DNA of 57,432 nucleotides from a virus (taxonomy: Duplodnaviria > Caudoviricetes): IMG/VR virus record IMGVR_UViG_3300046787_000804, positions 1-57,432 of that record. One strand, 5' to 3'. Position 1 is the stretch's first letter. Each line of letters opens with the position of its first letter. The notes beneath the pieces are model-generated. The model was not told where the DNA came from. It was given only the letters and a program-made list of their open reading frames with translations, and searched no databases. Below, one piece after another: positions 19,376 to 33,528 of the stretch. Both the position numbers and the translations under genes were made by a program.

Positions 19376-19692
19376 AGGCCCGCACCGAATGGCACTTCGG
19401 TGGCGGCGCTACGTACTGCGGGGCATGCGAGACGACCTGTCCTGAGTGTCCGTATCAGGTGAACTCACCGCAGACCGAAGAGGGCTGGCAGGCCCTCGCT
19501 GTGCTGGATGTCTGTTCATCCCAAGTGCGCGCAGTTCAGGGCGCAGTGCTGGGTATGGACTTCAACGCGTGGATGTCTGCCAGCCAGGCACTGGATGCAG
19601 AGCCCGCTGCCATGACCCATTTATTCCCTGCCATCGAGGCGGGCCTGACGCAAGCATTGAACAAACCCTCTCCGGACAACCCACATGGCTGA
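19363..19692 (+). CDS. -1 frameshift extension of the tail chaperone (gpGT-like)
   Basis: Heptamer AAAAAAC at 19363-19369; the -1 frame is open (KRLKARTEWHFGGGATYCGACETTCPECPYQVNSPQTEEGWQ...) to 19692. Confidence 0.75.
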   Translation, partial: KKRLKARTEWHFGGGATYCGACETTCPECPYQVNSPQTEEGWQALAVLDVCSSQVRAVQGAVLGMDFNAWMSASQALDAEPAAMTHLFPAIEAGLTQALNKPSPDNPHG

Positions 19693-22312
19693 ACGTAACC
19701 TATCGATTCGACTGGCTGTCATTGACGGCGGCAAAGTCAAAGCCGAACTGGCAGACGTAGGCGAAGCCGGAGAGCGATCGCTAAAAAAGATCGAGTCGGC
19801 ATCGCAGCCTGCCTCTGCTGGTCTGAACCTGCTGTCCAAGGCGGCCAACGATGCCTTCGTGCGCATGGAAGACGCCACATCCCGCCTTGGGATGTTGGGC
19901 AGTGTGCTCGGTCGTCTTGGCCCTGCCGGGATGATCGTGGGGGCATCCGTTGCTGTGCTCGGCTATGGCATGCATCAGCTGGTTGTTCCGGTTGCTGAGG
20001 TGGGCGAAGAGCTCAACAAGCTCTCCCAGAAAACCGCTGTTTCGGTCGAGGCCTTGTCGGCACTGTTGTATGCCTCCGAGCTGTCGGACGTGAGTGCCGA
20101 GAGTTTGACCAAGGCGCTCAAATTCCTCTCGACTGCCATGTTCGATGCCAAGGTCAAGGGTGGCGAAGGCAGTGCTGCGCTCAAAGCGTTCGGGGTGTCG
20201 GCGCTGGATGCGCAAGGGCAGATTCGTCCAACTGAGCAGGTGCTGCTGGACCTGGCGGAGAAATTCGCGGCCATGCCCGACAGCGCAGAAAAGGCAGCGC
20301 TGGCCGTCAAGCTGTTCGGCAAGAACGGACTGGACATGATCCCCATGCTCAACCAGGGGCGAGATGGGCTGAACGAGATGATGGAAGAGGCCAAGCGCCT
20401 CGGGCTGGTCATGTCCGCCGATGCAGCGCGTGCTGCAGAGGAGTTCAATGACAACATGAAGCGTCTGCACGCGGTCAACGAAGGCGTGCAGCGCCAAATC
20501 GGATCCGCGTTGCTGCCGATCCTGGCCGATTTGACGGAGCAGATGTTTCTGGCCAAAACCGATGCCGGTGGTTTCACAAGCGAGTTGCAAGCCATCACGC
20601 ACAACCGGCAACAGGTTCTGTCCTTTCTCGAGGAGGTCGCGACAGGGCTGGGATTCATTGCCGAGTCGGCAGTGCTTGCCAAGCGTGTGATCAGTCAGCC
20701 GTTTGATAGTCTGCAGGTGGTCGCCAAGGACGTGGAGACCTGGATCAAGACGGACATGCTGCGCTCCATGAAGTCCATGGGATATGACGAGACGCAGATC
20801 AATGCCGAAATCGCCAAGTTGCAGGCGGCGCGCGATCGGTTTGTCGAGGCGGCCAACGACCGTTTGACGCATCTGACGGATAACCCCGGCTACGTCAACA
20901 AGATCGAAAAGTTCTTCGATGAGCAACGTCGTACGGTGCGCGTCATGGGGCAGAAATTTGTCCTGGAAACAGCAGAGCAAGCTGCACAGGTTCAGAAGAT
21001 CTATGACGAGTTCTTGCCCAAGATGCCTCGCAAACGACCCAGTGGGTTAGATCTGTCTGGCTTTGAAAAGAACAACGAAGGCTTGCAATTCCTGAAGCAG
21101 TTGGAGCAGCGTGCGTTGCGCGTGACCCAAGGCGAAGGTGCTGAGTTGCGCGCACGGGCTTTGGAGCTGGAACGCAAGGGCTATGCAGGTGTTGTCAAGG
21201 AAGCAGAGAAGTACATCGAAGCCATCGAGCGGATGGAAAAGCAGAAGGAAGCTGACAAGAAGTTTGAAGAATACGAGAAGGAGCTGCAAAAGGTCCATCA
21301 GATCACCGAGAACTACATCGGCAACAACCGCCTAAAGCAGGAAGAGTTGCAGTTGAAGCGCCAGCTTATGGATGTCGGCGAAGCCGAGCGCGCAGCTTTG
21401 CAGACCCGCTTCGAAATGGAAAAGGCGGCTGTCATGGCGTTGCGCCAGGCCGAGCAAATCAACGACCCTGGCCTCAAAGCCGAGGCTATCGCTGCGATCA
21501 ACGATGCTTTGGCGCGGCAGTTGCCGATCGTTGAAGAGCTTGCTCGGGCCAATGTGGAATATCAACGCAGCTTTGACTATGGCCTTCGCAGTTCCCTGCG
21601 CACCTACATCGAGGACGCGACCAATGCGGCCAAGCAGGCTGAACGTGCCGTAACCGGTGCCTTCAAGGGCATGGAAGACGCAATGGTTCAGTTTGTGACG
21701 ACCGGCAAGGTGGACTTCAACAGCCTAGCCAACTCGATCATTGCGGACCTGGTTCGCATCCAGATCCAAAAAATGATCACCTTGCCTTTGGCTGGGTGGA
21801 TTAGCGGACTGAACCTGTTTGGAGGTTCAGGAGGCAACGGATTGGGCGGAGCATTCCCAGCTGGAGCTACGGACCTGATGTCAGGCGGCACGATGGTGGC
21901 GCACACCGGTGGCCTGATTGGCAGCGATGTGCTGGCTACACGCGCTGTCGGACTGCAGCACTTCGATGGCGCTCAGCGGTTTCATACCGGAGGCTTGGTG
22001 GCGGGTGAGGTGCCCATCATCGCGCAGCCGGGTGAGGCGGTTTTCACGCAGGGGCAGTTGCGTGCACTCGGTGGCGCTTTGGCAAAAAACAATCCGTCGC
22101 CGGTCAAGGTGCTGGTGAATGTGACCAACCATGCCCCGGGCGTCGATGCGAGAGTTCAAACCACTCAGCAACCCGACGGTAGCACTCGGCTGGATGTGAT
22201 CGTCGAGCAGATTGAGGCGCGCATGAATCGTTCTATCAACCAAGGTGTGGGTATTGCCCCCACGCTTGAGCGTCGCTATGGGCTCAATCCAGCGGTAGGA
22301 GCTTTGCGATGA
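19685..22312 (+). CDS. Tail tape measure protein, lambda-type C-terminus
   Basis: 875 aa helical Ala/Glu/Leu-rich; FVTTGKVDFNSLANSIIADL and HTGG motifs. Confidence 0.9.
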   Translation: MAERNLSIRLAVIDGGKVKAELADVGEAGERSLKKIESASQPASAGLNLLSKAANDAFVRMEDATSRLGMLGSVLGRLGPAGMIVGASVAVLGYGMHQLVVPVAEVGEELNKLSQKTAVSVEALSALLYASELSDVSAESLTKALKFLSTAMFDAKVKGGEGSAALKAFGVSALDAQGQIRPTEQVLLDLAEKFAAMPDSAEKAALAVKLFGKNGLDMIPMLNQGRDGLNEMMEEAKRLGLVMSADAARAAEEFNDNMKRLHAVNEGVQRQIGSALLPILADLTEQMFLAKTDAGGFTSELQAITHNRQQVLSFLEEVATGLGFIAESAVLAKRVISQPFDSLQVVAKDVETWIKTDMLRSMKSMGYDETQINAEIAKLQAARDRFVEAANDRLTHLTDNPGYVNKIEKFFDEQRRTVRVMGQKFVLETAEQAAQVQKIYDEFLPKMPRKRPSGLDLSGFEKNNEGLQFLKQLEQRALRVTQGEGAELRARALELERKGYAGVVKEAEKYIEAIERMEKQKEADKKFEEYEKELQKVHQITENYIGNNRLKQEELQLKRQLMDVGEAERAALQTRFEMEKAAVMALRQAEQINDPGLKAEAIAAINDALARQLPIVEELARANVEYQRSFDYGLRSSLRTYIEDATNAAKQAERAVTGAFKGMEDAMVQFVTTGKVDFNSLANSIIADLVRIQIQKMITLPLAGWISGLNLFGGSGGNGLGGAFPAGATDLMSGGTMVAHTGGLIGSDVLATRAVGLQHFDGAQRFHTGGLVAGEVPIIAQPGEAVFTQGQLRALGGALAKNNPSPVKVLVNVTNHAPGVDARVQTTQQPDGSTRLDVIVEQIEARMNRSINQGVGIAPTLERRYGLNPAVGALR

Positions 22313-22830: not shown

Positions 22831-25496
22831 ATGACCCTCAAGACCCGGCTGGATGAAGCTGTGGGAACGATCGAGGGGGATGCCCAACTGCTCCATGAGA
22901 TCGTCCACGGGGATGATCAGACGACCGTAACCACGGAAGGTGGCCAGGTCAAGAGCGTGGCCAACGTCATTCATGGGGTTCAAACCCAACTTGATGCGTC
23001 CCGCCAAGAACTGACCAATCAGGTGGCCACGGCCACTCAACTAGCGAGCAATGCTGCGCAATCAGCCAGCAGTGCATCGACATCGGCCACGACAGCCAGC
23101 ACCAAGGCTAGTGCGGCCAGTGATTCTGCAACCAGTGCGGCAAGTTCCGCGACGACTGCGGCGACTTCGGCAACCACTGCCAGTACCAAGGCCAGTGATG
23201 CCAGCAGCAGCAAAACGGCGGCGGCCACCTCGGCAACCAATGCGGCCACCAGTGCCACCAATGCAGCGAGCTCGGCAACAGCGGCGGCAGCTTCGTCCAC
23301 CACCGCGACGCAAAAGGCCAGCGATGCGGCTAACAGTGCCAGTTCGGCGGCAGCCTCCGCCACCACGGCCAGCAGCAAGGCAACCGATGCACAGACCGCT
23401 TTAGCATCTGCGCAGTCCCAGGCTTCATTGGCTTCCGACTGGGCGCAGAAAACCGCTGCAACGGTCGACGGCACCGGGTATTCGGCGAAGTATTGGGCGG
23501 ACCGGGCGGCCAATTCGGCGGCAGTGGTCACCACCAATACGGTGATTCCGGCAGATGTGTTTGCTGGGGATAGCGTCAAGACGGATTTCACCCTCAGCCA
23601 TCCCGTGGCTTATCCGGGTGCTGTGTTGGTGACTGTGGCCGGAGTTCCTCAAGCACCAATAGATTCGTACTCGGTCCCCGCCATTACAACCCTGCGCTTT
23701 GTGTCCGCACCGGCGACAGGTGTGGGCATCAGTGTTCGATATCTCGACAAGGAAGCTCAATCTGGCGCAGCGTCTGCACAGGAGTGGGCCACCAAAACCG
23801 GCGGTGTGGTCTCCGGCTCGACGGAGTATTCGGCCAAGTACCACGCCCAGGCAGCTGCTGCGAGTGCCACTTCGGCATCGTCGTCTGCGACGGCGGCATC
23901 TGGTAGTGCGACATCGGCTGCAGGATCTGCAACCACGGCTGCGACCAAGGCTGCCGATGCAGGGACATCGGCCACCAATGCGGCAACTTCAGCAACCACA
24001 GCCAGCACCAAAGCCAGCGAAGCTGCGACATCGGCGACCAATGCTGCGAACAGTGCCAGCGGTGCATCTGCCTCTGCAACAACAGCAACGGCTAAGGCCA
24101 CCAATGCAAACAGCAGCGCAACAGCTGCAGCAAGTTCGGCCAGCAGTGCATCTGGTAGTGCCATTCTGGCGCAGGATTGGGCGACCAAAACGACAGCCCC
24201 GCCCAGTCGATCTCTGCTTCAGCATCAACCGCCACGCAAAAGGCAACGGATGCGGCGGCCAGTGCGACGGCTGCGGCTGGTTCAGCAAGTACCGCCTCGA
24301 CCAAAGCCTCGGATGCCGCAACGTCGGCGACCAATGCAGCGACTTCTGCCAGTACCGCCAGTACGCAGGCGACTGCAGCGGCAACCTCAGCCACGAATGC
24401 GGCGAGCTCCGCTACTGCAGCGGCAGGTTCGGCCACCACCGCAAGTGGCAAAGCGACGGACGCAGCCAACAGTGCCACGGCGGCAGCAACCTCGGCCAGC
24501 AACGCGAGCACGAGTGCCGCCAACGCGGCAACTTCGGCAGCTGGGTCAGCCACAACGGCAACGACTAAAGCTGGGGATGCAACGGCGAGTGCTACTGCAG
24601 CGGCCAATTCGGCGACTGCGGCGGCAGGCAGTGCCACAAGCGCAGCAGGGTCGTTGACGGCATCACAGGCGCAAGCCGCTCTGGCTTCTGATTGGGCACA
24701 AAAGACCACCGGTACGGTCGACGGCAGCGGTTACTCAGCCAAATACTGGGCAGGGCAAGCGGCAGGATCGGCAGCAGCGGTGACGGCCAATACGGTCATT
24801 CCCGCCGATGTGTTCACCGGCGATGGCGTGAAGACGGATTTCACAATCAGTCGGCCAGTCGGTTATCCCGGTGCATTGATGGTGACAGTTGCCGGGGTGC
24901 CTCAAGCGCCCTTGGATGCCTACACCACACCAGCCACGACGACGCTCAGATTCAGCTCGGCTCCTACCAGTGGCGTCGTGATCAGCGTGCGCTACCTGGA
25001 CAAGGAAGCGCAGTCTGGCGCAGCCGCAGCCGAGGAATGGGCGAACAAGACGTCGGGACCTGTTTCTGGCTCGACCGAGTATTCGGCCAAGTACTACGCA
25101 CAGTCCATTGCCGCCAATGCGGCGACTGCCAGTCAGCAAGCAACCAGTGCTGCGAATTCGGCTACGGCGGCGGCTGGCAGTGCCACCGCATCGGCGAACT
25201 CTGCGACGGCTTCAGCAGCATCGGCCACCCAAGCGCAGAGCTACATGAGTCAGGCGCAGGGGTATGCCGCTGCAGCGGGTGGCTCTAACGTCGCTCCACA
25301 GACCTTTACCGGAAATGGTTCGGCTACTGACTTCAGTTTGAGCACTGCAGCGTCCAGCGTCCATAAATTGATCGTGACGGTCAACTACGTGGTGCAGGAC
25401 TCACTCGATGCCTACGTCCTGGTCAATTCCGGGGCGACTTTGCGATTCACATCGGCACCAACCGCCAGCGCGCGGATTGTGGTGCGTTACATCTAA
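22831..25496 (+). pseudogene. Long Ala/Ser/Thr-rich tail fibre-like gene split by a frameshift near 24200
   Basis: A/S/T repeats run in one frame to about 24200 and continue in another frame to 25496; the junction lacks the V.G..EYSAKYY segment present in the other repeat units. Confidence 0.75.
23437..25103 (+). repeat. Two 414-bp imperfect internal repeats in the fibre gene (23437-23850 and 24690-25103)
   Basis: Both encode DWAQKT..TVDG.GYSAKYWA...NTVIPADVF.GD.VKTDFT...VAGVPQAP...LRF.SAP...VRYLDKEAQSGAA.A.EWA.KT.G.VSGSTEYSAKY.AQ. Confidence 0.9.
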
Positions 25497-25508: not shown

Positions 25509-26063
25509 ATGGCGATTACGCGCATCCCCAAAGCGGGGCTGGATGATGCCTTGCAGAACGAAATCAATGGCAAGTTGGACAAGGTCGGTGGAACGATGAC
25601 GGGCTCCATCACGATGACCAATGGAGCCTTGTTCAAGAGCAGCGTCACAAGTGATGACGCTCGAAATACGGGCTACAAGATGGCCGACGGGCAGGACATC
25701 GGAGAGATGAATCGCTCGAGTCAGTACTACGACGATCGGGCCACCAATTGCAATGGATATCTGCCTAATGGCAACTGCGCCAGTAACGGGTACTGGAACC
25801 CCCCCAATGGCAACTGGTGGACCTGGGGCGTCAGTGGCGTGCCGACAGGAAACTGTGCCAACTGGGGCAGCTATGACGGTGCAGGCGGCACCTCTCAGGT
25901 CTTCAACGCGGTGTCGGTCGGATTCAACTACGACGGGTACTACGAAGCCGCCAATGAGATCGGTGGTTCTGAATACCACCGTTGGTACCGCAACTGCAAC
26001 TGTGGATCGTTCAACTGCCGCACCAATTGCAATTGCAACTGCGCTTGTTGCGGCTGCTGCTGA
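25509..26063 (+). CDS. Fibre-like protein with Asn-Cys-rich C-terminus (candidate substrate of the adjacent modifying enzymes)
   Basis: LDKVGGTMTGSI fibre-type motif; 13 Cys, 9 of them as Asn-Cys; ends NCNCGSFNCRTNCNCNCACCGCC; AGGAG RBS. Confidence 0.8.
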   Translation: MAITRIPKAGLDDALQNEINGKLDKVGGTMTGSITMTNGALFKSSVTSDDARNTGYKMADGQDIGEMNRSSQYYDDRATNCNGYLPNGNCASNGYWNPPNGNWWTWGVSGVPTGNCANWGSYDGAGGTSQVFNAVSVGFNYDGYYEAANEIGGSEYHRWYRNCNCGSFNCRTNCNCNCACCGCC

Positions 26064-26072
26064 GGAGACGCG

Positions 26073-26906
26073 ATGAAGGTCTATATCACCCGTCCCCCGG
26101 CCTATGCGAGCTCGCCAGATCACGTGGTTCGTGTCCTGGTCGATGCGCCAAAGCAACGCGTAGGCGTGGAGATGTGCATTGTTTTTTCACCCAACCCCAG
26201 CGAGCCAGTGTCAGATGATGAGAGTGTTGTGCAAAGCGGTGACAAGTTCTACAAGGTCATCGCTGCCAGCGAGTTTGACTATGAGCTGCTCAAAAGAAGT
26301 ACGGGGTGGGCGGATCGTCAAGCCTGGCATCTGACATTCCGTTGGGATGTCAGATCGTTCACTGATCCGATCCCGCTCTACACCTATTCCATGGCGACCA
26401 AGATGTCGGCTCCGGAATTGTCACGTACGACTTACCAAAACAATCTGTCAGTGGGCTTTGTGGTCCCGTTCTCGGACTCGGCCTTTGAAGACTGTGCTGT
26501 GACCGTGAACATCAACCCTGATGTGAACAAAGGCGATTGTGTGGTGCAGGGTGTCGACGCTTCGGAAATCGTACGTACCGATTATTCGGCGAGTGCCCAG
26601 GTACGGGAGTTGATCCTTTTGCCTGGTGTCCAGATATCAGCGCCAACGAGCTGTACACCTGACGGCCAGGTCAACGTCCAAGTGCAAGTGCTCGATGCGA
26701 ATGACATGCCTATTGAGCACGATGCTGAAATCTTTCTTGAGGCGGTCAATGGCTACCTTCCAAAGACCCGCATCAAAACAGTCAACGGCCAGGCAAGTGT
26801 CCCTTTCATGGCCTTGGGCCTTGTGGCAGGAGATTCAGCACGGGTCAAAGCCGGTTTCAAATACTTCAGTGGTGCTTCTGATGTCTCCATCCAGATCCAT
26901 GACTAA
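26073..26906 (+). CDS. Hypothetical protein with C-terminal Ig-like beta domain
   Basis: C-terminal VNVQVQVLDAND.P...GYLPKTRIKTVNGQASV...ARVKAGFKYFSG beta-strand pattern; GAGGAG RBS. Confidence 0.6.
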   Translation: MKVYITRPPAYASSPDHVVRVLVDAPKQRVGVEMCIVFSPNPSEPVSDDESVVQSGDKFYKVIAASEFDYELLKRSTGWADRQAWHLTFRWDVRSFTDPIPLYTYSMATKMSAPELSRTTYQNNLSVGFVVPFSDSAFEDCAVTVNINPDVNKGDCVVQGVDASEIVRTDYSASAQVRELILLPGVQISAPTSCTPDGQVNVQVQVLDANDMPIEHDAEIFLEAVNGYLPKTRIKTVNGQASVPFMALGLVAGDSARVKAGFKYFSGASDVSIQIHD

Positions 26907-27507
26907 GGAGCTGTTTGGAGCAAGGGTATATGCGGGTCTCCATCCATTTCCAGATGACGTGATGCTGGAGATGCGCAAACGGGCGCTGGCCATACACCAG
27001 AGCATTAATCCTCATGGCATGCCATGGTCTCGATGCACACGGGAGAGTTTGCATGTCGCCGAACCATTTCAGCAGGTTTCGGAATTGATCGAGCAGGTGG
27101 TCGAGACTGAGTACGGATGCAGTGTGAGCCACCTGACTGGACGAGAAGTGGTGATACAGAGCGGGCAATGCCTGCCGCTGCACTGTGAGGACACCGATCT
27201 GTCAGCGGTATTCGTGCTGAGTAATGAAGCCAGGGCGAATCCTGAGCGCAGTGATTACTCCGGCGCATTCGTTTTGGTCAATCCGAGTGGAGCGTTTGGA
27301 TTCAAGCGCCTGCCATGGGAGGGGCTGAGATCGGAGCTGATTTATCCGACAGCAGGAATGTTGTTGATTTTCCCGAGCTACCTGGCTCACCACACTCACC
27401 CCTACAACGCACAGGAGCCAGCGGTTGAGTTGCACTTTGAACTCAACGTGGTCGATAACCATGCCCATCAACGTTTACGACAACCCAGTTTCCCCCGAAC
27501 TCTGTGA
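26899..27507 (+). CDS. Putative 2OG-Fe(II) oxygenase
   Basis: LPLHCED..LSAVF, G.FVLVNP and PTAGMLLIFPSYLAHHTHPY double-stranded beta-helix motifs; start ATG 26899 overlaps the previous stop. Confidence 0.75.
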   Translation: MTKELFGARVYAGLHPFPDDVMLEMRKRALAIHQSINPHGMPWSRCTRESLHVAEPFQQVSELIEQVVETEYGCSVSHLTGREVVIQSGQCLPLHCEDTDLSAVFVLSNEARANPERSDYSGAFVLVNPSGAFGFKRLPWEGLRSELIYPTAGMLLIFPSYLAHHTHPYNAQEPAVELHFELNVVDNHAHQRLRQPSFPRTL

Positions 27508-28048
27508 AGCAACGCGAGCTTGGCTTTTGTCGCAAAGTCCCATCTTCGGGTGGCGCGCACATGCAAACGCACCCGGTGTTTTCTGGCATCGCAATTTCGT
27601 GTTACCTGGAACGCATCAACACCACTATGACGATATCGCTTGGAATTCTGAGCTGAGTTACGAGGCCTTTTGTGCCTTTGAGAGTCCCTTAGCGCGGGTT
27701 GCCGAGATCGTTCGCCAGCAGTTCTTTGATGGCGAGGCCTTCACTCGGATCTGGGCCAACTTTCAGTCATTTGGTGACGAGTCGGCATTTCACAGAGACT
27801 TCCCTGTTCAGTACGCACGGACTGCCCGTACAGCCGTTTGGTATCCAGTGATGAACTGGGAGAGGGATTGGGGTGGTGATTTCATCACCCTCTCCGATGA
27901 TGGAGAGGTCGATGCCTGCACATTGATTAAGCCCAATCGACTGGTGGTGTTTAACGGGACGCAAACGCATGCGGCTCGTCCGATTTCCCGCTACTGCAGC
28001 GAACTGCGCATTGCAGTTTCATTCGGATGTGAGGTGATCAATGCTTGA
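27461..28048 (+). CDS. 2OG-Fe(II) oxygenase, prolyl-hydroxylase-like
   Basis: HRD (HxD), WERDWGGDF, KPNRLVVFNG..THAARP...LRIAVSF (distal His and 2OG-binding Arg). Confidence 0.85.
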   Translation: MPINVYDNPVSPELCEATRAWLLSQSPIFGWRAHANAPGVFWHRNFVLPGTHQHHYDDIAWNSELSYEAFCAFESPLARVAEIVRQQFFDGEAFTRIWANFQSFGDESAFHRDFPVQYARTARTAVWYPVMNWERDWGGDFITLSDDGEVDACTLIKPNRLVVFNGTQTHAARPISRYCSELRIAVSFGCEVINA

Positions 28049-28706
28049 GCATCTATGGAGCACTCCGGTTCTTCATGAGCAATCGCCCTTCACCATGGGC
28101 CAGCTTGAGGAGTTAAAGAAATTCACCACTGAGCGATTTCGCAATCACAAAGCCCATCCGCCTCGGCATGCATTGCCTGATGTGCCCGTGAAGTTACGAA
28201 CCCAGCTGAATCTGTTCTTGCCTGATCATGAGATGCATGCTCCGGCAGTCTGGTTTGAATTCAAACGCTGGGTGGATAGAACCTACCGCGCCTATCTGAA
28301 TGAGGCCCATGGAGTTAGGAATGTGAATGAGCTTGAAGTGCTCGCTCGATGCATCCCTGTTTGCTACCAAAAGGGCATGCGTGCGCAGCCTCATTACCAC
28401 CACACGGGCGATCATGTGCTGTGTCTGTATTTGGATTGCGGCAACGACCGAATACCTCCTGAGGACCGTGATTGGACGGTCGGAGATGGTGAATTGCTTC
28501 TACAAGATCCCCGCCCCATGGCGGGGTTTCCTTTTTGGGAGAAGGTTCGCTACATCGAAACATTCCCCGGTCTGGTCGTATTGCACCCATCGCGGGTATG
28601 GCATGAGACCAACCCCTTCAATGCCCCAAGCGGTCAACGGACCTTATTGGTCGTGACCCTGCGTGTGGCGTCCCATAACTACACCGAGCTGTACACCCGG
28701 CTATGA
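28041..28706 (+). CDS. Putative 2OG-Fe(II) oxygenase (TIGR02466-like)
   Basis: LWSTPV N-terminus, PHYH, CLYLD, GELLLQDPRP, PGLVVLHPSRVWHETNP...R. Confidence 0.8.
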   Translation: MLEHLWSTPVLHEQSPFTMGQLEELKKFTTERFRNHKAHPPRHALPDVPVKLRTQLNLFLPDHEMHAPAVWFEFKRWVDRTYRAYLNEAHGVRNVNELEVLARCIPVCYQKGMRAQPHYHHTGDHVLCLYLDCGNDRIPPEDRDWTVGDGELLLQDPRPMAGFPFWEKVRYIETFPGLVVLHPSRVWHETNPFNAPSGQRTLLVVTLRVASHNYTELYTRL

Positions 28707-28718
28707 GCCGATTCGGAG

Positions 28719-28922
28719 ATGACGATGATTGAGAAAACCATAGACCTCGTTGATGACGAGCATGTTTTGTTCACTGTGACGGTAGTCGAAGGCGAGCGTA
28801 TCCGCTCCCGTCGTGAGTATCACTTGGCCAAGTTCGCCCACCAAGACGCCGAAGAGGTCTGCCGACAGGCTTGCCCCGAGGCTTTCGCACAAGAGCCGTC
28901 GGTTCAGAGTGGAGGCGTGTGA
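28719..28922 (+). CDS. Small hypothetical protein (67 aa)
   Basis: GGAG RBS; TGATG coupling to the radical SAM gene. Confidence 0.55.
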   Translation: MTMIEKTIDLVDDEHVLFTVTVVEGERIRSRREYHLAKFAHQDAEEVCRQACPEAFAQEPSVQSGGV

Positions 28923-30283
28923 TGGCCAAGTTCACATTGCTGGCACGCGATCGTGCCAATTCACCCATTACGCTGACCTACGATAACCAGACCAGTGAAC
29001 TGCTCGATGGGGATCTGATGCCTTGGCCTCTACCGTATGTGGAGAAAACCTGGTCTGTTGGCCACATTGAGGCGATCAGTCAGACGATCCCAGGGCGCAA
29101 AGAGAGTCCAAAAGTTCTGAAAATTCAGCTCGGGCTTTCGTGCAACTATTCGTGTGACTACTGCAGCCAGCGATTCGTTCCTCATGCTGAAGAAACAACG
29201 CAGGCAGATGTGCCGCAGTTCTTGCATCTGCTCGAATCAAGTCTTGAGAGGGCTCCAGAGCGCATTGAGTTCTGGGGTGGAGAGCCGCTGGTCTACATCA
29301 AGACCTTGCGTCCATTGGCCGAAGCCCTGCGACAGCGATACCCGGCTGCTTCGTTCAGCATCGTTACCAACGGCTCTTTACTCAACCCGGAGGTCAACAC
29401 CTGGCTTGATGTGATGGGATTTGGGGTAGGCGTTAGTCATGACGGACCAGGACAACCCGCTCGCGGCCCAGATCCGTTGAATGATGAGACGAGTCGCGAA
29501 GGAATCATGGATTTGTATCAACGACTTGCACCGAAGGGGCGCATTTCGTTCAATGCGATGGTCCATCGAACCAACACCAGCCGGGAAGAAATCGCAAAAT
29601 TCTTCCTGCAGCTGACTGGTGACCCATCGTTGTCAATCGGCGAAGGTGCTTTTGTTGATCCTTACGATGCTGGTGGCTTGGCCAATTCGATCCAGTCTGA
29701 TCAGGAGGCGTTTGCATTCCGACGTCAATCGCTTGATGAGATCCGTCGTGGTCGTATCGTTCATTTGGACGTGGCTCGATCCCGCATGCAGGAATGGGCG
29801 CGCAGTATCTTGGAGCGTCGTCCTGCCAGCGTATTGGGCCAAAAGTGCGGGATGGATACCGCGAATCAAGTCGCCGTCGACCTTATGGGTAATGTGCTCA
29901 CCTGTCAGAACGTGAGCGCGGTTTCTGTTGCACCCAATGGGCAATCACATCACATTGGCCATCTCTCCAATCTCAAAGCAGTAGCACTCAACACATCGAC
30001 ACACTGGTCAAAGCGTACTGAATGCCTGAATTGCCCAGTGCTTCAGGCTTGTAAGGGCGCTTGCATGTTCTTAGAGGGGCCGTTGTGGACAGCCGCCTGC
30101 GATAACGCGTACTCGGACCATGTGCCATTCTTTGTGGCCGCCATTGAACACCTAACCGGGTGTGCCGTTTATCGCATCGAAGGCGATTTGCCAGAGGATC
30201 GAGCTGACGTTTTTGGGCTGAAGTCGCAGGACCAAAGATCACCGCGACGCAAGTTCATCCCGATCGAGGTCTCAAATGCCTGA
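28922..30283 (+). CDS. Radical SAM enzyme with SPASM domain
   Basis: CNYSCDYC (CxxxCxxC), FWGGEPL, VTNGSLL, VSHDG; SPASM-type KCG...GNVLTC...IGHL...CLNCPVLQACKGAC...C. Confidence 0.92.
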   Translation: MAKFTLLARDRANSPITLTYDNQTSELLDGDLMPWPLPYVEKTWSVGHIEAISQTIPGRKESPKVLKIQLGLSCNYSCDYCSQRFVPHAEETTQADVPQFLHLLESSLERAPERIEFWGGEPLVYIKTLRPLAEALRQRYPAASFSIVTNGSLLNPEVNTWLDVMGFGVGVSHDGPGQPARGPDPLNDETSREGIMDLYQRLAPKGRISFNAMVHRTNTSREEIAKFFLQLTGDPSLSIGEGAFVDPYDAGGLANSIQSDQEAFAFRRQSLDEIRRGRIVHLDVARSRMQEWARSILERRPASVLGQKCGMDTANQVAVDLMGNVLTCQNVSAVSVAPNGQSHHIGHLSNLKAVALNTSTHWSKRTECLNCPVLQACKGACMFLEGPLWTAACDNAYSDHVPFFVAAIEHLTGCAVYRIEGDLPEDRADVFGLKSQDQRSPRRKFIPIEVSNA

Positions 30284-30818
30284 TGCAGCACTTTCTGAGG
30301 CGCTTCGGGAGGCTTATGCAAGCGCTCCATGCAACGTGATCATCCTGCATACCCTGGAGATCCGGCATCCGGACTTCAGGGACGACGCGGGTAACTCGAC
30401 GGCGATCCGGGTGGTGCGTGATCAGCAAGACTTACTTGCGAGGCTTGAGGCATCAGCCCCAATCAATGCGGGCCAGCAAGTCCAGTTCGTGGCTATGGGC
30501 TTTGAGCTGGATCTGCCGCCGGTGGATATCGCGCCGGTTCCCGAAATCGCGATCACTCTGGATAACGTCACCCGAGAGATCGTGAAGCATTTGGACGAGG
30601 CTTCGGTTTCCGAGTCGCCCATTGAAGTGACCTACCGTCCGTACCTATCTAACGATTTAACCGGACCACAGATGGATTCGCCCATCACGTTGGTGATCAC
30701 CGAAGTGGAGGCCGACGTGCAGAGGGTGACGGCCAAGGCGCGGATGGCGGACATTGGCAACAAGACATTCCCGTCACGCCTGTACACCGCAACCGAATTT
30801 CCAGGATTGGCCCGATGA
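30276..30818 (+). CDS. DUF1833-like minor tail protein
   Basis: EAYASAP...LHTLEIRHP...IAITLDNV...YRPYLS...FPGL signature. Confidence 0.8.
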   Translation: MPDAALSEALREAYASAPCNVIILHTLEIRHPDFRDDAGNSTAIRVVRDQQDLLARLEASAPINAGQQVQFVAMGFELDLPPVDIAPVPEIAITLDNVTREIVKHLDEASVSESPIEVTYRPYLSNDLTGPQMDSPITLVITEVEADVQRVTAKARMADIGNKTFPSRLYTATEFPGLAR

Positions 30819-31237
30819 CAGTTGAAGATTCACCGAGTTGGGCGATCCAGTACATCGGTCGTCCGTGGATTGCAGGTGAGAGAGGCCCCGAGTCATTTGA
30901 CTGCTGGGGCCTTTTTCTTTGGGTCCAGAAGGTGCACTTCGGTCGTGATCTGCCGATGATTCCTGTCGACGCACTGAATCTGCGCACGGTCCTCCACACA
31001 TTCAAAAGCCACCCGGAGAGACAACGCTGGGCGGCAGTTGAAGTGCCCAAGCAAGGCGATGCAGTGCTGATGCGTCAGTCACGATACCCCGTACATGTGG
31101 GCGTTTGGATCGATGCGGACGGCGGTGGTGTCTTGCACTGTGCCCAGCAAATTGGGGTGGTGTTTCAGCAATTGAGCTCTCTGGCTAGTCACGGCTGGCA
31201 GGTGGAGGGGTATTACCGATGGAAGGAATTGCCATGA
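30815..31237 (+). CDS. NlpC/P60 tail assembly protein (gpK-like)
   Basis: YIGRPW..G.RGPESFDCWGL and HVGVW..VLH motifs. Confidence 0.85.
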   Translation: MTVEDSPSWAIQYIGRPWIAGERGPESFDCWGLFLWVQKVHFGRDLPMIPVDALNLRTVLHTFKSHPERQRWAAVEVPKQGDAVLMRQSRYPVHVGVWIDADGGGVLHCAQQIGVVFQQLSSLASHGWQVEGYYRWKELP

Positions 31238-33528
31238 CAAGCGTTTGCATGTCAGGCCTACCCAGTCCTGGACTGGTCATTTGGATGCGAAATCCGTTCG
31301 AGCCCAGTGATCGGCAGGTAAGCCATGTGTTTGGTTCGCCCACGATCGCTCAATGGATGAGTCGTGATGGCATCGAGCTCGATCAGCCCACCTTGATCCT
31401 CAAAAACGGCCAGCCGGTGCTGATGGCCCATAGGGCTGTGACGCCAATCGATGCGGGTGACGTTGTTGCCTTGGTCACTCTACCGCAAGGTGGTGGAGGT
31501 GGGGGCAAGAACCCGCTGAGAACTGTGCTCATGATCGCCGTCCTGGTGGTTGCCAATGCATATGGCGGCGCTCTGGCTGCTTCGATGGGGTATTCAGGCA
31601 CGCTGGCCACGGCGGTGGCGTCCACTGCGATCGCAGTCACGGGTTCTGTTTTGGTCAATGCACTGGTGCCATTGCCAAATCAGTCTTTGCCTTCGGCATC
31701 GGCCAACACTACATCCCCCAGCCCGACTTACTCATTGCAGGCGCGCGGTAACTATGGACGTCTGTCGCAACCCGTGCCCGTGATTTATGGCCATCATTTG
31801 GTGTACCCGGACCTGGCCACCATGCCCTATACCGAGTATGAGAACAACGAGGAGTATCTTCATCAATTGCACGTCATTGGTGTGGGCCATTTTCAGTTTG
31901 AGGAGCTGTCCATCGATGACAGCCCGATCAGCTCGTTTGCCGAGGTGCAGGCACAGGTCATTGAGCCTGGCGGACAGAACACGTTGTTCAATCCCGATGT
32001 GGTCACTGCCCCAGAGGTGTCCGGACAGGAGTTGATTGCAGTCAGCGATGCCGGTTCTATTGTTGGCCCCTTTGCCCTGAACCCCGTGGGCACACAGATC
32101 AATCAGGTTGGTGTCGATGTGGTGATGCTGCGGGGCCTTTATTACGCCAATGACAGCGGTGCATTGGAGAGCCGGTCGGTGCAATGGCGCGTCGAAGTGC
32201 GAAGCATCAACGACGATGGAGATGCCACCTCGGGCTGGCTCCATGTGGCAGATGAAACCTTTTCAGCCGCCACGAATACCGCGCAACGCTTGTCGTTCAA
32301 GTATTCGGTGTCACCTGGGCGTTATGAGATTCGCCTGCAGCGTCTTGATGCGCGGGACACCAGCAACCGAGTCGGTCACGAGCTGCGCTGGGGGCAGGCC
32401 AAGGGCTATTTGGCAGGATCGAATTTGCCCACTGATCTGACCTACTTGGCACTCAGGATGCGTGCCACTGACAACTTGTCTCAGCGCTCCTCGCGGCTGG
32501 TCAATTGTCTGGTGACGCGCAAGCTCCCTATCTGGAATCCGAGCACTGGATGGTCTGCGCTGCAACCCACTCGCTCGATTGCGTGGGCCTTCGCGGATGC
32601 GGTCAAGTCCAGCTATGGCGCAGGGTTGCCTGACCGGCAATTGGACCTGGCGGCCTTAGCACGGTTGGATGCGGTGTGGTCGGCACGAGGGGACACCTTC
32701 AATGCCGTGTTCGATCAAAACCAGACGGTGTGGGACGCCTTGGGGCAGATTGCCAGGACGGGGCGTGCTGTGCCGTTCTTGCAAGGCGGGATTGTTCGTC
32801 TCGTTCGCGATGAGCCTAAGACCATCCCGGTGGCGCTTTTTTCTGCAAGAAACATCGTGCGCAACAGCTTGAAGATCCAGTACCTGATGCCAGGCGATGC
32901 CACGGCGGATGCAGTCACGATCGAATACGTCAACCCCAAGAGCTGGAAGCCTGATGAATTCACGGTGTCTTTGTCTGGATCTCAGGCTGCCAAGCCCGCG
33001 CGTGTGAGGTTGTTTGGCTGTACCGATAAGGCCCAGGGCGTTCGCGAGGGGAAATACATCGCAGCGGCCAATCGGTATCGCCGACGAATCGTGACCTTTC
33101 GCACTGAGCTGGAAGGTTTGATCCCGACCTATGGGGATCTGATTGCCCTGAGCCATGACATTCCCCGTTGGGGTGTGAGTGGTGAGGTCTTGAGCTGGGA
33201 CAGCCAGTCGAGAACAGTGCGGTGCTCTGAGCCGCTGGGTTGGCAGTCAGGAGCCGTTCACTACCTTGTTTTGCGAAAGCCAGATGGCTCGGTCTCCGAT
33301 GCCATCGAGGTCACGCCGGGCGCAACTGCCACCCACGCCATCCTGAAAACCCAACCCGGCTTTGAGCCACTGGTGGGTGCTGACCGAGAGCGAACGCACT
33401 TTGCTTTTGGTGTGGGCCAGTCCTGGTCCCAGTTGGCACGCGTCATGAGCGTCAAGCCCAGGGCTGAGCAGGTTGAACTGACTTGCGTGACCGAGAACGC
33501 GTTGGTGCATACCGCTGATCAATCCTGA
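31234..33528 (+). CDS. Host-specificity tail tip protein (TipJ-like, with gpI-like N-terminus)
   Basis: PQGGGGG, N..RL.QPVPVIYG, YLALRMRAT, GD.IALSHD motifs. Confidence 0.85.
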   Translation: MTSVCMSGLPSPGLVIWMRNPFEPSDRQVSHVFGSPTIAQWMSRDGIELDQPTLILKNGQPVLMAHRAVTPIDAGDVVALVTLPQGGGGGGKNPLRTVLMIAVLVVANAYGGALAASMGYSGTLATAVASTAIAVTGSVLVNALVPLPNQSLPSASANTTSPSPTYSLQARGNYGRLSQPVPVIYGHHLVYPDLATMPYTEYENNEEYLHQLHVIGVGHFQFEELSIDDSPISSFAEVQAQVIEPGGQNTLFNPDVVTAPEVSGQELIAVSDAGSIVGPFALNPVGTQINQVGVDVVMLRGLYYANDSGALESRSVQWRVEVRSINDDGDATSGWLHVADETFSAATNTAQRLSFKYSVSPGRYEIRLQRLDARDTSNRVGHELRWGQAKGYLAGSNLPTDLTYLALRMRATDNLSQRSSRLVNCLVTRKLPIWNPSTGWSALQPTRSIAWAFADAVKSSYGAGLPDRQLDLAALARLDAVWSARGDTFNAVFDQNQTVWDALGQIARTGRAVPFLQGGIVRLVRDEPKTIPVALFSARNIVRNSLKIQYLMPGDATADAVTIEYVNPKSWKPDEFTVSLSGSQAAKPARVRLFGCTDKAQGVREGKYIAAANRYRRRIVTFRTELEGLIPTYGDLIALSHDIPRWGVSGEVLSWDSQSRTVRCSEPLGWQSGAVHYLVLRKPDGSVSDAIEVTPGATATHAILKTQPGFEPLVGADRERTHFAFGVGQSWSQLARVMSVKPRAEQVELTCVTENALVHTADQS

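Follow-up and report, generated by a model that had tools for sequence, protein, structure and literature searches.

The window analysed here is the whole viral contig record IMGVR_UViG_3300046787_000804 (Duplodnaviria; Caudoviricetes), a stretch of 57,432 bases that CheckV estimates to be 70% complete. Two genes of its tail operon are the subject of this report. The first, an open reading frame (ORF) at positions 25509 to 26063 on the plus strand, encodes a 184-amino-acid protein whose last residues form a ladder of alternating asparagine and cysteine, referred to below as the Asn-Cys (NC) tail. The second, located 2.9 kb downstream, codes for a radical S-adenosylmethionine (SAM) enzyme with a SPASM domain. 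Tail and enzyme prove to be linked in both directions across related phages, and we propose that the former is modified by the latter.

A fibre-tip protein ending in an Asn-Cys tail

The ORF begins with an ATG codon preceded by GGAG 8 nt upstream, and its product can be divided into an N-terminal fibre-repeat segment (approximately residues 1-45; 25509 to 25643), a globular tip domain of the type designated A (approximately residues 46-161; 25644 to 25991) and the C-terminal ladder (residues 162-184; 25992 to 26060), which contains 10 cysteines and on which the radical SAM enzyme is proposed to act. The cysteine counts given in a first-pass annotation, which had been made from the letters of the sequence, are correct. 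There are 13 in total (positions 81, 90, 116, 163, 165, 170, 174, 176, 178, 180, 181, 183 and 184), nine of which directly follow an asparagine and 10 of which fall within the last 23 residues, and none of 100,000 composition-preserving shuffles yielded nine or more NC dyads. The P-[NT]-G-N repeats listed by the same annotation are present as well (PNGNC from residue 86, PNGNW from 99 and PTGNC from 112), in a protein that also holds 6 Trp, 11 Tyr, 24 Asn and 26 Gly residues.

A fibre-type segment had been recognised in the N-terminal half, and this assignment is sound, as residues 9-56 match the repeat units of long fibres many times over (12 stretches in homologue P0143 and 11 in P0154). In homologues, the domain that matches residues 20-184 (approximately) is nearly always C-terminal, and the parts that precede it differ greatly in length and carry other fibre modules; for example, the fibres P0124 and P0129 have the Pfam domains Phage_T7_tail, Collagen and PTR (phage-tail-repeat) ahead of the tip domain. 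Given these repeat matches and the C-terminal place of the domain on long fibres, we identify the 184-residue protein as the module that forms the distal tip of the tail fibre in this freshwater phage. It consists of joint repeat, globular tip and tail, and its N-terminal repeat segment is probably the joint to the proximal fibre. The gene is found between the tape-measure and fibre genes on one side and the DUF1833 and TipJ genes on the other.

The tip family comprises 209 of 219 candidates at E<=1e-3 in a set of 5.8 billion proteins, and 61 representatives at the same threshold in a 50% cluster library. No Pfam, PHROG or NCBIfam model matches the 184-residue protein, and a tblastn search with it against 50,697 phage records returned no match. 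Its AlphaFold2 (AF2) model, built from 124 sequences, has a mean predicted local distance difference test (pLDDT) score of 75.9. When this model was compared by Foldseek with the PDB, two matches were obtained at E<=10 and none at E<=0.001, and the comparison with BFVD gave nothing beyond one sequence relative that is 52% identical. Where a genome record names a host, it is mostly one of the freshwater Burkholderiales (Limnohabitans, Polaromonas and Polynucleobacter) or of the Alphaproteobacteria. Near-identical prophage stretches are also found in metagenome-assembled genomes labelled Bacteroidetes and Klebsiella pneumoniae (loci L083 and L094), the other hosts being Burkholderiales, and these two labels probably reflect mis-binned phage contigs.

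No part of the family is better conserved than the NC tail. In an alignment of 30 sequences extending down to 44% identity, C163, N164, C165, N169, C170, N173, C174, N175, C176 and C178 are invariant, and when 124 sequences are aligned, C163, N173, C174 and C178 remain so while most of the other NC positions exceed 90%. The alignment of homologues that the first-pass annotation had called for thus finds the NC dyads among the most conserved columns rather than drifting, and within this tip type the PNGN motifs are conserved too. Within the globular domain, W103, W104 and W106 are invariant across the 30 sequences, and G88, N89, C90, P98, N100, G101 and N102 nearly so, which corresponds to the conserved NGNC and PPNGNWWxW motifs.

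The tail is laid out as a conserved NC-[RYV]-T-NCNC core followed by a variable run of x-C units. Among 131 tails, between 4 and 10 cysteines (median 8) occur from the core to the end, and the residue that precedes a cysteine is Asn in 642 cases, Ala in 183, Asp in 77, Cys in 51, Gln in 17 and Gly in 16. An NxxC motif is inherent in every NCNC unit, and the 184-residue protein has five such motifs, four of them in the tail. The tails of close relatives (loci L116, L126 and L132) vary by whole x-C units. A hexanucleotide repeat encodes part of the ladder in the window (26024 to 26042), with which the whole-unit differences are consistent, and this suggests that ladder length is set by repeat slippage.

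Association of the tail with a radical SAM gene

The enzyme is a 453-residue protein encoded at 28922 to 30283 on the plus strand (phrog_1802, 3.4e-59). Its true start is the ATG at 28922, given that the possible upstream extension from a TTG codon is interrupted by stop codons in a related locus (L005). An alignment of 31 enzyme sequences reveals invariant cysteines of the CxxxCxxC motif (C74, C78 and C81), exactly seven further invariant cysteines in a SPASM pattern (C309, C328, C368, C371, C377, C381 and C393), and a conserved N-terminal domain of approximately 70 residues that is common to all. The SPASM model TIGR04085 scores 32.8 bits and so passes its cut-off of 27.

Two sets of loci were assembled, one starting from each gene. 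The forward set consists of 113 loci found by fibre-tip alignment, which are the best 80 of 87 confirmed IMG/VR matches together with 33 from species-representative genomes. Homologues of the radical SAM gene, called by tblastn at E<=1e-5, are located downstream of the tip gene and on the same strand in 95 of these, at distances of 1,011 to 6,079 nt. Where at least 8 kb of downstream sequence is available the enzyme is present in 50/50 loci, where at least 6 kb is available in 61/61, and where at least 4 kb is available in 86/87. Of the 18 loci that lack it, 17 end less than 2.3 kb past the tip gene, and the remaining one (L105) has 4.3 kb.

For the reverse set, the viral collection was searched with the enzyme alignment. 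Relatives of the enzyme account for 582 of the 599 pattern matches listed, and therefore number at least 582; the best 80 were examined, 77 of which are new loci. In 55/55 loci with at least 3 kb of upstream sequence, and in 58/59 with at least 2 kb, that stretch holds an ORF on the strand of the enzyme whose product terminates in an (N/D/A-C)n tail. Only eight of the reverse-set tails are on proteins similar by tblastn to the tip of the window, and those eight contigs were already in the forward set. The background frequency of such endings is low: among the 17,122 complete six-frame ORFs from 190 loci, only 213 have CxCxC within their last 20 residues. Of these, 166 lie just upstream of the radical SAM gene, 21 are in truncated loci with no match to the enzyme, and the 26 located elsewhere are for the most part the same genes read in antisense or in another frame. 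Removal of 16 wrong-frame artefacts from the 166 left 150 tail-bearing ORFs. The connection between tail and radical SAM enzyme that the first-pass annotation had drawn is strongly supported by this two-way association of genes.

The tail is not confined to a single kind of tip. BLASTP clustering of the 110 residues that precede the tail in the 150 ORFs (a set in which eight contigs are counted twice) resolves three tip types, with 100 members in the type of the window, 42 in a type with a conserved NYGWLHDYFF segment and 8 in a third type that has no cysteine outside the tail. In some second-type fibres (L133:4842-6527, L150:3172-5244 and L136:2716-4371), the Cys-tailed tip is preceded by collagen-like Gly-X-Y tracts of great length. 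Second-type tips go with enzymes that are 52-60% identical to that of the window, and in one locus (L011) a tip 77% identical to that of the window is accompanied by an enzyme that is only 39% identical. In a FastTree phylogeny of 121 distinct enzyme sequences, for which matches shorter than 380 residues or containing stops were left out and identical rows were merged, the tip type changes at least four times (the minimum possible is 2, and the mean after shuffling is 40), and window-type tips occur with both deep clades. Because tip types switch on the enzyme tree in this manner, the constant partner of the enzyme is the tail and not the globular domain.

Cultured phages carry the pair as well. 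The enzyme matches 31 of the 50,697 phage records, with coverage of at least 80% of its length in only five, which derive from three phages whose enzymes are 45-50% identical to that of the window. Two positions upstream of the radical SAM gene, the Achromobacter phages JWF and 2-1 have a gene for a T4-gp36-like fibre with an NC/DC ladder followed by a Hint domain. In Ralstonia phage RSP15, a 'side tail fiber' gene three genes upstream has a minimal NCQC ending. The contexts of the cassette range from T4-type neck and sheath-stabiliser genes (L064) to TipJ siphoviruses. The loci under study are related phages, and so our large counts are not independent events; independent support for the linkage comes from the three tip types, the three cultured phages, the several morphotypes and the approximately four switches on the tree.

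Genes accompanying the tail and the enzyme

The tail-module series of the window begins with a tape-measure protein (19685 to 22312), which is followed by a structural protein of phrog_384 and then by a proximal, Ala/Ser/Thr-rich tail-fibre gene on the plus strand (22831 to 25496) that matches PHROG tail-fibre families. The latter is split into two frames (22831 to 24657 and 24177 to 25496). In locus L002, where the corresponding stretch is 94-95% identical to the window, it is a single ORF of 902 residues, relative to which the window is approximately 34 nt short near position 24200. This break could be due to assembly collapse in a repetitive region or to a genuine frameshift.

On the other side of the tip gene, also on the plus strand, is an ORF for a 277-residue accessory protein (26073 to 26906) with predicted beta-sandwich or immunoglobulin (Ig)-like domains. 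Its AF2 model is of high confidence (pLDDT 92.3) and exhibits beta-sandwich domains, its structural matches being generic only (template-modelling score <= 0.31), and the ESM Atlas offers only weak Ig-like leads. It is present by tblastn in 67 of the 95 forward loci that bear the enzyme.

Three tandem genes on the plus strand that resemble 2-oxoglutarate (2OG)-Fe(II) oxygenases follow, and these are mutually divergent. The first (26899 to 27507) and third (28041 to 28706) match PF13759 with E-values of 2.1e-05, slightly below the cut-off, and 3.6e-05, respectively, and both match phrog_81. The second (27461 to 28048, with an alternative TTG start at 27425) matches PF13640 at 1.1e-05 and an FlmC-family model at 3e-12, the latter below its cut-off, and has a visible His-x-Asp and a distal His. 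The three score 25.3, 26.7 and 24.5 bits against a Pfam cut-off of 27, and PHROG 81 and 274 are matched. Dioxygenases encoded beside tail-collar and collagen-like proteins were predicted to modify those proteins, according to the excerpted text of Iyer et al. 2010 (PMC2938197), and by analogy the oxygenases of the window may hydroxylate Asn or Pro residues of the tip. Those operons, as far as the excerpts describe them, share with ours the placement of peptide-modifying dioxygenases next to fibre-like proteins and differ in having no Cys tail and no SPASM enzyme.

The last gene before the enzyme is an ORF of 67 residues (28719 to 28922, plus strand), whose stop codon shares one base with the start codon of the radical SAM gene. 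It matches no family, and could encode a small partner of the enzyme. Immediately after the enzyme, genes on the plus strand for a DUF1833 minor tail protein (PF08875, 6.7e-43), a 140-residue ORF and a TipJ host-specificity protein (NF040662, 2.3e-148) occupy 30276 to 33528, and thus the cassette is embedded in structural genes.

Across the 150 loci, the interval between tail and enzyme contains oxygenases of the group formed by the first and third genes in 98, the 277-residue protein in 88, the 67-residue ORF in 48 and a second, shorter radical SAM gene in 7. The accessories are therefore recurrent and none is universal, the oxygenases and the 277-residue protein being frequent but dispensable. 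Clusters of the intervening genes are mutually unrelated apart from a weak link between two oxygenase groups, and by hhalign the 277-residue protein is unrelated to the intervening genes of JWF, RSP15 and L064. The second radical SAM gene encodes approximately 340 residues with no SPASM domain detected and is located directly before the main one (L046:11416-12435, L054:11439-12452, L152:3322-4326 and four further loci). In one locus group, a fatty-acid-desaturase-like gene (L025:13609-14370; PF00487, barely over the cut-off) is found between tip and enzyme.

A minority of relatives continue past the ladder. Hint domains follow the last cysteine in six of 10 relatives scanned (P0110, P0131, P0137, P0138, P0158 and P0170) and also in seven loci (L042, L053, L055/L166, L058, L072, L114:5844-7295 and L194:853-2295). 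Hint domains are intein-like and self-cleaving. Judging from the sequences, self-cleavage by Hint would leave the ladder as the mature C-terminus, which would fit a need for a free terminal ladder. A different extension of approximately 160 residues, beginning with G-K/S-I/V-ICTEL, follows the ladder in P0134, P0155, L032:9800-10735 and L077:3321-4391; in the two of these that were scanned, P0134 and P0155, it has no Pfam match.

Candidate chemistry of the tail and its significance

We somewhat favour the interpretation, drawn from sequence comparisons, that the enzyme installs thioether cross-links in the tail, and that chemistry typical of peptides made by ribosomes and modified after translation (RiPPs) is thereby applied to a virion protein. 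The ladder of alternating Asn (or Ala, Asp or Gln) and Cys would be the substrate of the phage's own radical SAM enzyme. The cytoplasm is reducing and does not allow disulfides to form; there, the thiolate of a tail cysteine would be bound on an auxiliary iron-sulfur (Fe-S) cluster of the enzyme. A hydrogen atom would then be abstracted from a neighbouring acceptor, most likely the beta-carbon of an Asn in the N-x-x-C register of the NCNC units. Closure of the thioether would be followed by repetition along the ladder, before or during fibre assembly, and the outcome would be a redox-insensitive, covalently stapled fibre tip, whose links would join residues of one chain or possibly of different chains in the trimer. 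A rationale for thioethers may be seen in the fact that the cytoplasm precludes disulfides, while outside the cell a run of ten thiols left free would be a disadvantage.

The choice of serial thioethers is guided by the N-x-x-C register of the NCNC units and by three precedents. NxxcB, a streptococcal SPASM enzyme, forms a thioether between Cys and the beta-carbon of Asn in N-x-x-C and tolerates Ala, Gln and Asp as acceptors (excerpts of PMC9389541). Its substrate NxxcA resembles the phage tails in having repeated N-x-x-C motifs, and the acceptors tolerated by NxxcB are the same amino acids that are found between the cysteines of the phage tails. As far as those excerpts describe it, NxxcA differs in being a short secreted peptide under quorum-sensing control, whereas the proposed phage substrate is the C-terminus of a virion fibre; the NC dyads of the phage are moreover contiguous and overlapping. 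No NxxcB model is among the 25 of 45 NCBIfam matches listed for the enzyme.

The other two precedents concern substrates of protein size, as described in excerpted text of PMC13692751. CrpC of Methanococcus voltae is a SPASM radical SAM enzyme that installs ranthionine thioethers in CrpA, a protein-sized Cys-repeat product encoded next to it. QhpD is a radical SAM/SPASM enzyme of aerobic proteobacteria that makes Cys-Asp/Glu thioethers inside the subunit QhpC. The CrpC/CrpA system is archaeal and cellular, and it has 17-residue repeats with C-x-x-Q/D, a leader and a RiPP recognition element (RRE), while QhpC, which likewise has a leader, is a small subunit of an enzyme and not a fibre. The word phage is absent from the available text of the CrpC paper, supplementary network tables lying outside this scope, and a search of the literature in full text, supplements aside, turned up no account in which the fibre of a phage is acted on by a radical SAM enzyme. 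SPASM thioether maturation is known, and its proposed application to virion fibres would be new.

The enzyme itself is predicted from its sequence to be of the cysteine-modifying SPASM type. Its best NCBIfam matches, among those listed, are the PapB ranthipeptide maturase, geopeptide, QhpD, CcpM and TIGR04463 models. The first of these (NF047865) is matched at 1.7e-16 over residues 83-399 with 60.4 bits against a cut-off of 340, and the QhpD model is matched at 7.9e-14 with 51 bits against 453. TIGR04463, the CrpC-type model, scores 40.2 bits against 525. The nearest solved structures are 8vpo, whose record gives no functional name, CteB, which is second, and anSME. The ranthipeptide and SCIFF maturases PapB and CteB are therefore similar to our enzyme in providing the best family match and the second-best structure, and they differ in that their substrates are peptides of approximately 45 residues bound through an RRE, none of which was detected here. 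The alignment with anSME indicates that one cysteine of its first auxiliary-cluster segment, CGM...C, has no counterpart in the phage family. In CteB-type enzymes, a missing auxiliary-cluster cysteine goes together with an open iron site, at which the thiolate of the substrate is bound.

Several observations weigh against the thioether proposal. For every member of the family, the chemistry is a prediction from sequence. The enzyme belongs to no characterised family, as all scores are far below the respective cut-offs, and its reaction is therefore not readable from homology. The phages are related, with approximately four tip-type switches on the tree. The tail of RSP15 has only two cysteines. 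Residues 173-184 of the tail have pLDDT values below 50 in the AF2 model, and their geometry is not readable. No RRE-like domain was found, and neither the 70-residue N-terminus of the enzyme nor the 67-residue ORF has a Pfam match even at E<=1. The co-occurring oxygenases (98/150) and the 277-residue protein (88/150) could act on the tail or elsewhere. A predicted complex of the enzyme with tail residues 150-184, three 4Fe-4S clusters and SAM received a score of 0.00, which weighs neither way.

With these caveats in mind, we considered whether the enzyme might act on the tail by other chemistry, such as conversion of Cys to formylglycine in the manner of anSME, sactionine links to the alpha-carbon or another radical change of cysteine. 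Its failure to pass any family cut-off leaves room for this, its profile aligns over the full length with that of anSME (4k36/4k37), an enzyme that acts on a whole protein, and the depositors of the JWF genome named the gene anSME. However, the anSME model TIGR03942 reaches only 37 bits against a cut-off of 349, and the phage family has seven auxiliary-cluster cysteines as opposed to eight in anSME over the aligned segment. The sulfatase motif modified by anSME is C-x-P/A-x-R, which the tail lacks, and the invariant Asn beside Cys is better explained if Asn takes part in the reaction. We therefore regard other chemistry as unlikely, though worth keeping in view.

The cysteines could instead hold metal ions or Fe-S clusters on the three-fold axis of a trimeric fibre, as the first-pass annotation had offered by way of alternative, in which case the enzyme would have another target or only aid assembly. 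The alternation of Cys suits such binding, which is a further point against thioethers: judged from the sequence, strict alternation would place all cysteines on one face of a strand. The tail ends in a metallothionein-like CCGCC, the two-residue steps in tail length among close relatives are as expected for a periodic stack, and metal binding was suggested for CrpA by its authors (excerpts of PMC13692751). Metal ions do stabilise fibre tips elsewhere. The tip of the T4 long fibre, gp37, has His-x-His iron sites, and T4 gp12 contains zinc. What the T4 tips have in common with the phage tail is an X-residue-X motif that recurs periodically where a trimeric fibre ends distally; they differ from it in that the tail has Cys rather than His as well as a dedicated radical enzyme. 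A metal ladder would leave unexplained both the SPASM enzyme beside the tail in 61/61 and 55/55 loci and the invariant Asn beside Cys, and scans with Pfam, PHROG and NCBIfam found no metal-handling gene in the cassette. We consider it distinctly unlikely.

An ordinary cysteine knot that forms disulfides after lysis, with the neighbouring radical SAM gene being an unrelated moron or auxiliary gene, might be entertained given that virions are extracellular and meet oxidising conditions, and given that unrelated inserts are common in phage tail operons. This is highly improbable in light of a two-way association that holds across three tip types, several morphotypes (T4-like in L064 and siphoviruses with TipJ) and enzyme identities down to 35%. 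Scarcely tenable is a true RiPP, with the fibre domain acting as leader and the severed tail set free as a bioactive peptide. Despite the likeness of a C-terminal Cys-rich core plus SPASM maturase to RiPP precursors, no peptidase or transporter was found in the cassette of the window or in sampled neighbours, the domain is the end of long fibres, and Hint, the sole self-cleaving element seen, sits after the tail.

What survives of the RiPP core on a structural leader, which was the central suggestion of the first-pass annotation, is thus the tie to a radical SAM enzyme. The remainder fits poorly, because no protease or exporter was found in the cassette, the tail is the true C-terminus of the fibre and any part that is cut off is the Hint domain that follows it. 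Measured against NxxC-type radical SAM RiPPs, the phage tail has the repeated NxxC motif; it does not have a short leader precursor or a released peptide, being part of a 184-residue fibre protein for which no accompanying RRE, peptidase or exporter was found. Post-translational modification of a structural protein is the better reading.

We offer more tentatively, and with slightly greater doubt than belief, a broader proposal. Several phage morphotypes would use a dedicated radical SAM enzyme to weld overlapping Cys-Asn thioether rings at the receptor-binding tip of the fibre, possibly between its three chains, in a cytoplasmic and redox-independent manner. Virion proteins would thereby gain their first case of cross-linking by a radical enzyme, and the tail would be a portable stapling tag of variable length that can move between unrelated tip domains.

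Radical SAM thioether chemistry has so far been associated with small antibiotic-like peptides and, very recently, with a few cellular proteins. If our interpretation is true, the tail and its enzyme would constitute a compact, genetically portable means to covalently stabilise engineered proteins or fibres. It would also account for the radical SAM genes that have stood unexplained in the tail operons of phages, the cultured Achromobacter phages JWF and 2-1 among them. Given the scale of at least 582 enzyme relatives in the viral collection, it would reveal a new class of post-translational modification of virions, located in the host-recognition fibres of hundreds of phages.

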